The notes: a model not told the origin generated them from the sequence alone. 64,000 nt of DNA from an uncultured Eubacteriales bacterium (GCA_905188025.1 CAJJKI010000004.1:8629-72628), one strand, 5' to 3'; positions 56,509 to 61,091 are shown, numbered from the stretch's first letter. Numbers and translations: made by a program.

Positions 56509-58707
56509 TTATTTAATGATTATTCTAGTAGTTAAATAGTTACTTGCTGTATCAGTAGTAGCGCTATAACTAAAAATACTAGAATTTTTTTGATTAGCAA
56601 TGCCTCCCCTAGCTAACCAATTGTTAGTGGTATCAATCCATGTGCCAGTAACATTAGATAACTCTTTGGTAGCATCTCCTAAAATGAATGTGTCTTTATA
56701 ATATAAATCATAGTCTTTATTGCTGATTGGAATATTTGCAAAATTACTATTATCAAGTGATAACTCATTAAGCGTTTCAGTGTAATTTGACATTGTAAAC
56801 TCAGCAGCACTACCAGACATATCATATACTCCATAACTATTACCAGTAGTGGTATCGCTTAAATTTGTACCACTTACGTAAGTGTTATTTGGTGATATAG
56901 TTTGGCATGTATTATTATCACAAACACCATATTTGCTATGTGAAAGATATGCTATTGCTCCCCATTCGCTATTTTTTATCATGCTGTAATTAGTACCAAG
57001 TTTTTTGATTTGTTGATAGTAATCTGATAAATAATTATTGACCCAAACATTAGCATTTGGTTTTGATTCGATTTGGTTATTATTATTTGATACTTCGTAT
57101 TTGCTTACCCAAAAGCCAGTTAACTCGGTATCTATATTAGTAAATGCTGGATGAGTATAATATTTATCATTATCATTTTTAGTTATTTTAGTTATTAGTA
57201 AATCATCGCTATAGCAAGTATTATCTTTACAATGAATTACTCCTGAAGAATCGGTATTTTTTTCAAAGATTATATCGATACCAGTTTCTTCAGCATTGTA
57301 ACTAGAGATATTTTCTCCGGTAGCATTCCATAATTTATATTTAAAACGTGGAATCCATACATAATAAGAATTTATATCTTTATTATTAATAGTAGTGCCA
57401 AGTGGTTGTGATTTGTAGTATTCTTTTAGAGTCATTGGTGTAAATTCGTTATAACCTTCTATTAAGTTTTCATATACAACATCAATACTTGTTTTATAAT
57501 TGCTGTTTATAACATTTTCTGAAATAATATCGTTATAGATATAAATATCACCAACTGTAATATTAGATACGGTATTATCTTCTTTATTATTGCCTATTTT
57601 AAAGCTTGATGATGAAATTATATTTCCTCTTATATTTGTACTTGATATTTTTGCTCCGTTGGCATAGAAATTTAAATTGTTACCATCGTAAGTGAATCCA
57701 AGAATATACCAAGTATTTTCACTGATAGTATATGTTTCAGAGCTAACTGAAACTCCATCATTTTCAAAAACAAATTTCTTTGTTTCTAAATTATAATAAT
57801 AATTTATTTTATCATTTGTGATTAAAGCTATTTTTCCGCTTGCTAACTCATTTGCTTTTATTCTTAAAATTGCACTTATGTTAGAGTTGTTATAATTTGA
57901 TAAACCAATATCTAATGGTGAACCTTCAAGAATAAGATTGCCATTATTGATGGTAGGATTATTTAGTTTCAAATCATTGTTACGAGTTAAATCATAAATT
58001 ACTTTTTCACTATCATTGATAATTACACTGTTAGCCCAAATGCTAGCGTTATAATCATACCAACGATATGACTCGATTGTGTTGCTTTCATCAGCTTTAC
58101 GCCATACTTTAGCATTTTCATCATAATATATTGGAATCATTTTATCTGATTGATTTGGTCTATTAGCACCACTATTATCAAGAGTTTTATAGATAGCTGT
58201 TCCTGAAGATACTACTTTAGCAATAAACTTTTTGCCTAATTCAATATTTGGAGTATCCATATCTAACCAAATATTAATTTTGAATGTTTGTTCTTCTCCA
58301 GGATAAATTATTAAATCAGATGCAATCACATTATTTGTAGTAAATAAGGTATGTGGTAAATTATCGTTGACTTTTACTTTGATATATTTGTTATCAATAA
58401 CATTCTCATTATCACTTGATAGCATTTTTAGATCATACTTATATATTAGATTACCAGTATTTTTTATAGTTAAAGTGTATGGCTCTAGAATGGTACCAGC
58501 ACTATCGTTCATTGGAAATGCTGACTCTAGAGTTATTTGTTTATCTTCGGTGAATTTTAAATCAAGTAGTCCAGTATTATAGTTAAAGGTGTTAGTGGTA
58601 TCAGACTTGATGAATAATGAATATGTGGTTCCACTTAAACTAACGATTACGAATAAAACGGCTAAGGCCATAATATAATTCTTCTTAGCTTCAATAAATC
58701 TTATCAT
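56509..58707 (-). CDS. large modular secreted protein: SipW-cognate signal, TasA/BsaA-like N-domain, LamG-like jelly-roll and C-terminal FGE-sulfatase/C-type-lectin-like domain
   Basis: ATG at 58707 (AGAGGTGA upstream). The signal is KKNYIMALAVLFVIVSLSGTTYSLFIKSD. The family block is FKINIWLDMDTPNIELGKKFIAKVVS. The LamG pattern is NTWYILGFTYDGNNLNFYANGAKI...FKIGNN...VGDIYIYNDIISEN. The FGE-like pattern is GFWVSKYEVS...SEWGAIAYL...YGVYDMSGSAAEF...WLARGG. Confidence 0.7.
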   Translation of the reverse strand: MIRFIEAKKNYIMALAVLFVIVSLSGTTYSLFIKSDTTNTFNYNTGLLDLKFTEDKQITLESAFPMNDSAGTILEPYTLTIKNTGNLIYKYDLKMLSSDNENVIDNKYIKVKVNDNLPHTLFTTNNVIASDLIIYPGEEQTFKINIWLDMDTPNIELGKKFIAKVVSSGTAIYKTLDNSGANRPNQSDKMIPIYYDENAKVWRKADESNTIESYRWYDYNASIWANSVIINDSEKVIYDLTRNNDLKLNNPTINNGNLILEGSPLDIGLSNYNNSNISAILRIKANELASGKIALITNDKINYYYNLETKKFVFENDGVSVSSETYTISENTWYILGFTYDGNNLNFYANGAKISSTNIRGNIISSSSFKIGNNKEDNTVSNITVGDIYIYNDIISENVINSNYKTSIDVVYENLIEGYNEFTPMTLKEYYKSQPLGTTINNKDINSYYVWIPRFKYKLWNATGENISSYNAEETGIDIIFEKNTDSSGVIHCKDNTCYSDDLLITKITKNDNDKYYTHPAFTNIDTELTGFWVSKYEVSNNNNQIESKPNANVWVNNYLSDYYQQIKKLGTNYSMIKNSEWGAIAYLSHSKYGVCDNNTCQTISPNNTYVSGTNLSDTTTGNSYGVYDMSGSAAEFTMSNYTETLNELSLDNSNFANIPISNKDYDLYYKDTFILGDATKELSNVTGTWIDTTNNWLARGGIANQKNSSIFSYSATTDTASNYLTTRIIIK

Positions 58708-58745
58708 TAGTATCACCTCTTATTCTTATAATTTTATTTGTTATA

Positions 58746-60404: not shown

Positions 60405-60434
60405 AAATATCATTCCTTACTAGCTATTTATATT

Positions 60435-61091
60435 TTATTCTTTAATTAATTTAGTTTTTATACCAGCTTTTTTGAGTAACTTCATGATATCATAAGATAA
60501 AATTACTAAGCATGGAATAAGTACTACGATGATTAGGCCACCTTTACTTGATAAAATATCTTGTAGGTATCCTAATTTAGGAATTTTTAAAATTACTTTA
60601 CCTAAAATATTTTTATTAGGAACAAGAACGCTATCAGCTACATTATTATTATCACCTTGTGTACGATATGAATAACTTCCCAATGATTCATCATAATATT
60701 TATCAATGATACGGTGTGTAACTGATATACCGCCAAATCTTGTATCAGGAGAAATGAAAGTTATAATATCTCCAACTTCTAGCTTTTCTTCAGGTACTTT
60801 TTTTGTAACAACAATATCTTTTACTTCAATGGTTGGTAACATACTGCCTGATAATACAACATAGGCATTAAAGGCTGGAGCTGAATAATCACCTTTCATG
60901 GCTCTTATTTTAATGTCGGCAATATATAACAGTAATGTTCCTCCTATTAGTAATAGAAAGATAAACAACGCATATGACATAACACTAACAATATATCTAA
61001 AAATATTTTCATGTTTTTTTATTACTTTTACTTTGTAATGCTTTACTCCAAAAACATTATTATTTCCATCTAATTCAATATTTGTAGGCAT
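60435..61091 (-). CDS. sipW: signal peptidase I, ER/archaeal type (SipW-like, Ser/His)
   Basis: 218 aa with an N-terminal TM helix, the SGSMLPTI Ser box, VTHRII (His in place of the P-type Lys), TQGDNN and a second C-terminal TM helix (LIIVVLIPCLVILSY), as in B. subtilis SipW. Confidence 0.85.
   Translation of the reverse strand: MPTNIELDGNNNVFGVKHYKVKVIKKHENIFRYIVSVMSYALFIFLLLIGGTLLLYIADIKIRAMKGDYSAPAFNAYVVLSGSMLPTIEVKDIVVTKKVPEEKLEVGDIITFISPDTRFGGISVTHRIIDKYYDESLGSYSYRTQGDNNNVADSVLVPNKNILGKVILKIPKLGYLQDILSSKGGLIIVVLIPCLVILSYDIMKLLKKAGIKTKLIKE

Follow-up and report, generated by a model that had tools for sequence, protein, structure and literature searches.

The window analysed here, a stretch of 64,000 nucleotides (nt) from an uncultured Eubacteriales bacterium (GCA_905188025.1, CAJJKI010000004.1:8629-72628), carries on its minus strand a three-gene cassette that encodes a SipW-like signal peptidase, a repeat-containing membrane protein (B555) and a large modular protein (C735); all positions are counted from its first letter. 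The three open reading frames (ORFs) are packed within 61148-56472 as one compact transcription unit. An earlier reading made from the sequence alone (the sequence-only reading) had already described a tight three-gene unit with gaps of 21 and 29 nt, and the unit itself is borne out by a promoter candidate, short gaps and a terminator hairpin. Those gap lengths are valid for the longest ORFs only, whose starts at 60413 and 58716 fall within or right beside ribosome-binding sites (RBS). Since the RBS-backed starts are ATG 60404 for B555 (AAGGA, 9 nt 5′ of the ATG) and ATG 58707 for C735 (AGAGGTGA, 5 nt 5′ of the ATG), the gaps become 30 and 38 nt, and the products of 218, 552 and 732 amino acids (aa) have the same lengths in homologues and in public gene calls. 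The promoter candidate is followed by the RBS AAGGGAG and by the sipW start codon at 61091; it lies in a 419-nt intergenic region that also holds a terminator-like hairpin of the preceding ArsP_2 gene. At the other end, the hairpin earlier placed at about 56470-56500 is real: it begins eight nt past the C735 stop codon, folds at -16.5 kcal/mol (z = -5.5, with 0 of 200 shuffles folding equally well) and is followed by a U-run. With promoter candidate, three genes and terminator, the cassette looks like a self-contained, stand-alone operon (Table 1).

Table 1. Coordinates of the cassette, of its domains and of related features; positions are those of the window unless a comparison locus is named.
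Feature	Position	Strand	Basis
SipW-like endoplasmic reticulum (ER)/archaeal-type signal peptidase I, 218 aa	60435-61091	(-)	TIGR02228; PDB relatives SEC11A/C
B555, orphan membrane protein, 552 aa	58746-60404	(-)	start/RBS, conservation map
B555, single transmembrane helix, about residues 30-62	60219-60317	(-)	conservation map
B555, five or six tandem ~55-aa YYxDG[TS] repeats, ~residues 110-420	about 59139-60086	(-)	self-hhalign 97.7%
B555, C-terminal P-like beta-sandwich	about 58758-59123	(-)	hhalign vs C735 N-domain
C735, modular protein, 732 aa	56509-58707	(-)	start/RBS, AlphaFold2, Pfam, Foldseek
C735, SipW-type signal peptide, residues 1-30	58618-58707	(-)	predicted cleavage TTYS↓LF
C735, donor-strand candidate, disordered, residues 31-46	58570-58617	(-)	AlphaFold2
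C735, P-like, plausibly TasA-like beta-sandwich, residues 47-172	58192-58569	(-)	AlphaFold2, profile comparison
C735, LamG module, about residues 200-405	57493-58110	(-)	Pfam, Foldseek
C735, probable C-type lectin (CLec) module of formylglycine-generating enzyme (FGE) type, about residues 428-732	56512-57426	(-)	profile match
Longest ORFs	60435-61091, 58746-60413, 56509-58716	(-)	ORF calling
Sigma-70-like promoter candidate, TTGTCT-17 nt-TATAAT	61148-61120	(-)	consensus match only
Intrinsic-terminator hairpin, 12-bp stem, 4-nt loop, then UUUUAAAUU	56501-56474	(-)	folding
Housekeeping LepB-type (P-type) signal peptidase I	8668-9183	(-)	TIGR02227 160 bits, Peptidase_S26 157 bits
P1, small SipW-signal protein	29043-29603	(-)	motif, TIGR04088
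P2, small SipW-signal protein	29639-30211	(-)	motif
P3, small SipW-signal protein	31476-31955	(-)	motif
P4, small SipW-signal protein	34781-35416	(-)	motif, TIGR04088
P5, small SipW-signal protein	35442-36014	(-)	motif, TIGR04088
pilD (A24 prepilin peptidase)	31994-32758	(-)	Pfam
pilC (T2SSF)	32778-34166	(-)	Pfam
Complete diversity-generating retroelement (DGR) cassette, type IV pilin-CLec variable protein, locus L054	316-4469 (template repeat 2314-2462)
Complete DGR cassette, type IV pilin-CLec variable protein, locus L074	7163-11298 (template repeat 9263-9417)

The first gene of the cassette encodes a signal peptidase I of the ER/archaeal type. Its product scores 96.5 bits against TIGR02228, the model of that type (cutoff 51.85), and 26.2 bits against the bacterial P-type model TIGR02227. 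Sequence searches of the PDB gave human SEC11A and SEC11C as its only relatives, with the SGSM, (T/V)HR and GDNN motifs aligned. The catalytic residues Ser83 (S81-G-S83-M), His126 (THR), which replaces the P-type Lys, and Asp147 (GDNN) do not vary among 16 orthologues (67-94% identity), and of the two transmembrane helices (about residues 29-63 and about 178-207) the second is C-terminal; the Ser/His/Asp motifs and the extra helix had thus been recognised correctly. Because the enzyme reaches 85.4 bits against NF046067, the Bacillus SipW equivalog model with a cutoff of 190, it is SipW-like in type and, by that cutoff, not an orthologue. Its Pfam Peptidase_S26 score lies just under the gathering score (22.3 versus 22.9), and therefore Pfam-based pipelines probably overlook this second signal peptidase; its orthologues in loci L001-L003, L081 and L082 carry no Pfam annotation in public gene tables. 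The view of the enzyme as a dedicated second peptidase is sound, as a genuine LepB is encoded in the same window. Among the loci examined, no further SipW homologue was found beside any C735 paralogue.

C735 opens with a hydrophobic helix that ends in S-G-T-T-Y-S↓L-F (the arrow marks the predicted cleavage), and residues T27-F32 are invariant in 28 orthologues; the hidden Markov model (HMM) of SipW-cognate signals, TIGR04088, gives no match on C735, although the motif is visible. The AlphaFold2 model (pLDDT 81, pTM 0.81) comprises a transmembrane helix at residues 2-24, a nine-strand sandwich at 47-172, a LamG domain at ~200-405 and a mixed alpha/beta C-terminal module, while residues 23-46, which follow the signal, stay below a pLDDT of 50 and are disordered in both the full-length and the N-domain models. 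The LamG module is certain: Pfam PF13385 (Laminin_G_3) scores 35.2 bits against a cutoff of 27.6 and matches 28 of 28 C735 family members, and Foldseek returns pentraxin and LamG structures at 1e-9 to 1e-7. A Foldseek search of the full-length model against PDB and BFVD gave LamG-type matches only, and PDB sequence searches with C735, B555 and the A1-A3 profiles returned nothing useful. The C-terminal module scores 22.1 bits against Pfam FGE-sulfatase PF03781 (cutoff 23.3), and a profile of 15 diverse paralogues of this module reaches TaqVP (5VF4), a DGR variable protein with an FGE-subtype CLec fold, at E 6e-4. Besides its SipW-type signal, C735 has the N-terminal domain shared with small paralogues and the grafted lectin-like modules that were proposed earlier, with LamG confirmed and the other module probably an FGE-type CLec.

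B555 starts with a charged and strongly conserved cytoplasmic tail (residues 1-29), followed by a transmembrane helix of variable sequence, a tandem repeat region and a C-terminal sandwich. The SipW-type cleavage motif T-[YFW]-[AS] is not present in the protein. Given the conserved tail and the lack of this motif, B555 looks like an uncleaved, N-in signal-anchor protein, and it is probably not a SipW cargo. Accordingly, of the two giant SipW cargo proteins that the sequence-only reading had seen, C735 keeps its place by virtue of its SipW-type signal, but B555 probably does not. Neither the single sequence nor the profile of B555 has a relative in Pfam, NCBIfam or PDB, and the same searches give no similarity to the TapA ectodomain. 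The 542 relatives of B555 are all orthologue-like and about 550 aa long, and in the loci examined its homologues occur inside the sipW cassette only.

The sandwich domain links both large proteins, and C735 in addition to the small proteins P1-P5, at the level of profiles. BLASTP among the window proteins gave no convincing shared domain, and the relationship was tested by profile comparison (hhalign, HMM), with 20 column shuffles as control. Residues 431-547 of B555 align with residues 71-168 of C735 at E 9e-6 and a score of 39, against at most 20 in 20 shuffles. The P4 family matches the C735 N-domain over 145 columns (hhalign probability 82%, E 1e-5) and, when the signal peptide is left out, still at E 1e-3 with a score of 27.6 (at most 20.8 in 20 column shuffles); P4 and P2 are related to each other at 98% and E 6e-13. 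Among 151 window ORFs, the C735_N HMM ranks P2, P4 and P5 as the top three non-self matches, followed by an unrelated ORF and, in fifth place, P1. In other genomes, single proteins at L019, L057 and L068 carry an N-domain that P3, in phmmer, and the C735_N HMM both match, and the B555 C-terminal HMM detects C735_N-type domains in paralogues. A motif, ...hWhD..PN....F.G.I.V, is common to the B555/C735 alignment and the ends of P1, P2, P4 and P5. At the structural level, the top PDB match of the C735 N-domain model in Foldseek is AbpA (7UEG; E 8.7e-4, probability 0.97, TM-score 0.27-0.29). AbpA, a donor-strand pilin and TasA homologue, is the sole match at E ≤1e-3 and is followed by chaperone-usher pilins. 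A TasA/camelysin-type fold of the shared domain is plausible, with modest backing from this one structural match.

The signals of P1-P5 all end in [ST]-[YF]-A followed by aromatic residues (GTYA↓YW, STYA↓YF, VSYA↓WY, ATFA↓WL and TTFA↓YN among the five). TIGR04088, with a cutoff of 19, scores P1 at 20.9 bits, and P4 (16.1) and P5 (17.6) below the cutoff; it matches 13 of 52 P4-family members. In a published study of the TasA site (PMC10269814), an aromatic P2′ residue is reported to make LepB, tested in E. coli, cleave poorly, while SipW cleaves TasA. C735 and P1-P5 all carry the motif followed by aromatics at P1′/P2′, which would explain the need for a second peptidase. The P locus as a whole (29043-36014, minus strand) is the probable partner locus of the cassette. 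pilD and pilC sit amid its SipW-signal genes, with P3 on one side and P4/P5 on the other, a layout kept in a goat-colon metagenome-assembled genome (MAG; L083) and reminiscent of the C. perfringens sipW operon, whose cargo is secreted in a manner dependent on type IV pili. Neither PilB nor a type IV pilin motif was found in the whole 64-kb window: C735, B555, P1-P5 and the remaining sequence all lack the class III signal (N-methylation motif G↓F-T-L-x-E), and P1-P5 were rejected as type IV pilins on this ground. Note also that Cys71 and Cys131 are invariant in 52 diverse members of the P4 family (alignment A2), which suggests a structural disulfide, in a protein that is extracellular and from an organism that is presumably anaerobic. 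Of the 150 P4-family representatives listed, about half are N-terminal domains within much larger proteins (up to 2160 aa).

The CLec module of C735 belongs to a large family. A genome scan (tblastn, species-representative genomes) found 533 relatives of C735, most of them covering the C-terminal part only (roughly residues 180-730). The module is strongly expanded, with about ten copies in some MAGs (e.g., BRZ_BM__bin18 and BRZ_AH__bin14; loci L019-L080); the motifs VWIPR[YF]KY and HPAF...EWGA are invariant, while the N-terminal parts (up to 1331 aa) are very varied. Among 77 full-length copies, about 28 open with a type IV pilin signal (KGFTLIELL; N_methyl confirmed) and about 35-40 with SipW/TasA-type signals and P2-, P3-, P4- or C735_N-like domains. 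Two pilin-CLec genes are targets of complete DGRs. At L054, a 149-nt template repeat (TR) lies 3′ of the gene and all ten of its ten mismatches to the variable repeat (VR) fall at TR adenines; at L074, 18 of 20 do so; bAvd and a reverse transcriptase (RT) are adjacent in both. An ORF resembling MutS domain I lies between TR and bAvd at L054, and the VR/TR segments of both loci look far more GC-rich than the host DNA. The ten top-ranked papers of one literature search on DGR variable proteins make no mention of type IV pilins.

P4-like, SipW-signal N-domains are likewise found fused to CLec, at L034 (15582-18235) and, in the same MAG, twice at L008 (4155-5927 and 19594-21330). The L034 copy comes with a decayed repeat that resembles a TR (17515-17650), in which 13 of 27 mismatches fall at TR adenines, and with the MutS_I-like ORF also present at L054, but with no RT nearby; it may once have been a DGR target, or a DGR may serve it in trans. 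The action of a DGR on C735 itself was considered and rejected: the window holds no TR-like repeat of the C735 3′ end, no RT and no Avd, and 15 strain variants of C735 differ by 24 scattered substitutions with no C-terminal cluster. The occurrence of CLec on both pilin and P-like N-termini, with two DGR targets among them, marks it as a filament-displayed binding module, and in this genome it is best read as a static ligand-binding head.

About 15 species-level MAGs retain the gene order sipW-B555-C735, with C735 at 43-69% identity; the comparative survey that the sequence-only reading had called for thus bears out the three genes as a unit. In L014 (Clostridium sp. CAG:914) and L017 the cassette is present with none of the ten flanking genes shared, and its integrity in spite of such different flanks points to a functional linkage beyond inherited synteny. 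A phage origin was rejected, as tblastn found no match in 50,697 phage records and the synteny is chromosomal and conserved; a comparison with phage families gave a single PHROG, of unassigned function, over residues 517-591. The window also contains markers of spore-formers, namely an alpha/beta-type small acid-soluble spore protein (SASP; 62425-62631), a sporulation-type sigma factor (39692-40375) and a YqfQ-like gene (34269-34733), and by these genes the source organism is a spore-former. Some related MAGs are nevertheless titled 'Tenericutes' or 'Muribaculaceae'. Repeats elsewhere in the window are ordinary and unrelated to the cassette: those at 17372-17535 and 21584-22022 look like tRNA genes, and 27775-28417 consists of four tandem LysM-coding repeats in an amidase gene.

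We propose, with middling confidence, that the cassette equips a TasA-like fibre of an uncultured gut Bacillus, itself a spore-former, with its dedicated peptidase, its membrane anchor and an adhesin subunit of modular build. In the proposed mechanism, the ER-type peptidase would cut signals of the form [ST]-[YFW]-[AS] with aromatics at P1′/P2′, such as those of C735 and P1-P5. Cleavage would free the disordered N-terminal segment of about 16 residues, which, by analogy with TasA, BsaA and AbpA, could serve as a donor strand for insertion into the sandwich of an adjacent subunit; the shaft would consist of the small P proteins. C735, with its LamG and CLec heads, would be a modular subunit that displays them, most plausibly at the distal end. 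B555 would be held in the membrane by its helix and tail, with the repeat stalk crossing the wall; its C-terminal sandwich, which has no signal-proximal donor strand, could accept the strand of a subunit and so anchor or nucleate the fibre. Of the earlier proposal that the large proteins are tip, anchor or adhesin subunits, the roles of tip or adhesin for C735 and of anchor for B555 fit the architectures best, but B555 would not take part as a cargo. The large proteins would, we infer, join the same polymer as P1-P5.

Several observations weigh against this proposal. The P genes lie 21-27 kb from the cassette, interleaved with pilC/pilD and not with sipW, and their products could equally sit on the cell surface as monomers. 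In hhalign, the B555 C-terminus shares with the P2 and P4 families only a short C-terminal motif, which is not significant, and so the link between B555 and the small P proteins is transitive; the block that the sequence-only reading had seen in both large proteins is thus present at the N-terminus of C735 and, by comparison with C735, at the C-terminus of B555, but does not connect B555 directly with the small proteins. The AbpA match is weak, its TM-score of 0.27-0.29 coming from a model that includes the transmembrane helix and disordered parts, and TasA is absent from the top 50 Foldseek matches of the C735 N-domain model; nor was TasA found in the PDB profile search. At the sequence level the shared domain does not qualify for the TasA/camelysin family: Pfam PF12389 (Peptidase_M73) stays below threshold throughout, with no match in C735 or B555, 17.2 bits (cutoff 22.5) over the signal region only in P4, and weak matches in 3 of 52 P4-family members. 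Finally, the promoter of the cassette is a candidate by consensus match only, and polymerisation, processing and the contacts among C735, B555 and P1-P5 are proposed by analogy.

The competing reading that fares best takes C735 for a stand-alone lectin, processed by SipW and secreted or surface-located like BsaC, with the sandwich as a handle or stalk and with B555 as an unrelated membrane protein or a TapA-like chaperone. BsaC, of 70 kDa and encoded in a sipW operon, is indeed secreted as a monomer; moreover, no small P gene lies inside the cassette, the P4-type domain is widely used as a leader module in proteins of 350-2160 aa, and the structural link to polymerising pilins is modest. Yet the disordered 16-residue segment and the AbpA- and pilin-like top matches fit donor-strand subunits, the same sandwich at the end of B555 is hard to explain without a sandwich-sandwich interaction, and CLec is otherwise borne by type IV pilins, which are filament subunits. 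We consider the stand-alone lectin somewhat unlikely.

The cassette could also be linked to sporulation. Its products would then, as TasA (CotN) is in B. subtilis, be deposited at the spore or in its surroundings, in the form of appendages or of an adhesin associated with the coat, and not on fibres of vegetative cells. TasA and SipW were originally described as spore-associated. The alpha/beta-type SASP gene 1.3 kb upstream, the sporulation-type sigma factor and the YqfQ- and YutH-like genes agree with such a role, but the sole promoter candidate is of the sigma-70 (SigA) type, and in L014 and L017 the cassette persists but is no longer linked to the SASP gene. A spore location, which would alter the timing and place of the system and not its mechanism, seems improbable. 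It is extremely improbable that C735 carries at its C-terminus an FGE-like enzyme (formylglycine-generating or another oxidase) that modifies a secreted substrate: the weak FGE-sulfatase match and two invariant CxxxxC pairs in the C735 orthologue family would suit such an enzyme, but that match is under its cutoff, conservation of the cysteines does not extend to the wider paralogue family, the best profile relative, TaqVP, is non-enzymatic, the C-terminal surface is DGR-hypermutated in paralogues, as befits a binding and not a catalytic site, and no sulfatase gene lies nearby.

An extension of the fibre proposal would have one interchangeable CLec head mounted, across this lineage of uncultured gut Bacilli, on two unrelated scaffolds, TasA-like subunits processed by SipW and type IV pilins processed by PilD, and DGR-hypermutated in some genomes, with the TasA-like fibre dependent on the orphan pilC-pilD pair. 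This bolder version is rather unlikely to hold in full; if it did, C735 would be the first 'modular TasA-like pilin', in a combinatorial and partly programmable adhesin repertoire of two pilus systems. The recurrence of the CLec head in type IV pilins and DGR targets suggests a common set of tools for adhesion to hosts or glycans. Fibres of the TasA-like kind have by now been recognised in both Firmicutes and Archaea, and the cassette is a conserved candidate for the source of their anchoring and of their binding specificity, offering a membrane-anchored acceptor and a lectin-headed subunit, in organisms that are abundant, uncultured gut bacteria. Public records show no Pfam domain on the peptidase or B555 and only Laminin_G_3 on C735, and none of the three genes receives a functional label in standard annotation; the cassette is a real, conserved system that annotation has largely missed.

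Known systems share parts of this arrangement. As in tapA-sipW-tasA of B. subtilis, a dedicated ER-type peptidase with a C-terminal transmembrane helix shares its operon with a pair of exported proteins, the substrate signal is T-aromatic-A followed by aromatics, and the larger partner is the proposed anchor or nucleator of a donor-strand fibre. Differently from that operon, the enzyme here reaches 85 bits of the 190 that the SipW equivalog demands, B555 is not TapA-like, is apparently uncleaved and carries repeats, the in-operon subunit has 732 aa with LamG and CLec, the putative shaft genes are 21-27 kb away and the Peptidase_M73 threshold is not reached.

The sequence-only reading had taken SipW cargoes to be fibre subunits of 20-30 kDa, so that large ones would be unprecedented, but the C. 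perfringens operon sipW-bsaA-bsaB-bsaC encodes the 70-kDa vWA protein BsaC, next to BsaA, whose fibres are membrane-anchored (PMC11580942). Known neighbours of the BsaA/TasA family are signal peptidases and large surface proteins. The C. perfringens operon thus resembles the cassette in having a large cargo with a binding-type domain; its BsaA fibres are functionally tied to type IV pilus genes, and here pilC/pilD lie among SipW-signal genes. It differs in that LamG and CLec here replace vWA, no BsaA-type shaft gene is in the operon and B555 has no counterpart.

The archaeal AbpA/AbpB pair of Pyrobaculum (7UEG; PMC9245690) contains the best structural match of the C735 N-domain, and a role as tip adhesin or nucleator was proposed earlier for AbpB and TapA (PMC9245690). 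AbpB, a larger partner with several domains and a signal, is the proposed strand donor and FimH-like distal adhesin, and we propose the same logic for C735; its locus, unlike the cassette, has no dedicated peptidase, its domains are unrelated to LamG and CLec, and the match is weak. The modular type IV pilins of S. sanguinis (PilB with vWA, PilC with a lectin; PMC8179133, PMC9934059) likewise join a filament module to a C-terminal adhesin module, and in sister genomes the very CLec module of C735 sits on genuine type IV pilin N-termini. The scaffold of C735 is, in contrast, a beta-sandwich with a SipW-type signal and not a PilD-processed alpha1-helix pilin. With the DGR variable proteins TaqVP (5VF4), TvpA and Mtd, C735 probably shares the FGE-type CLec scaffold, including the C-terminal frame W-x-RGG...F...R, but the 64-kb window holds no TR, Avd or RT, and strain variants of C735 are not hypervariable at the C-terminus. 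What is new here, set against these systems, is the combination of a plausibly TasA-like sandwich with LamG and CLec, an orphan repeat-anchor that ends in the same sandwich, and a CLec head shared with type IV pilins and DGRs.

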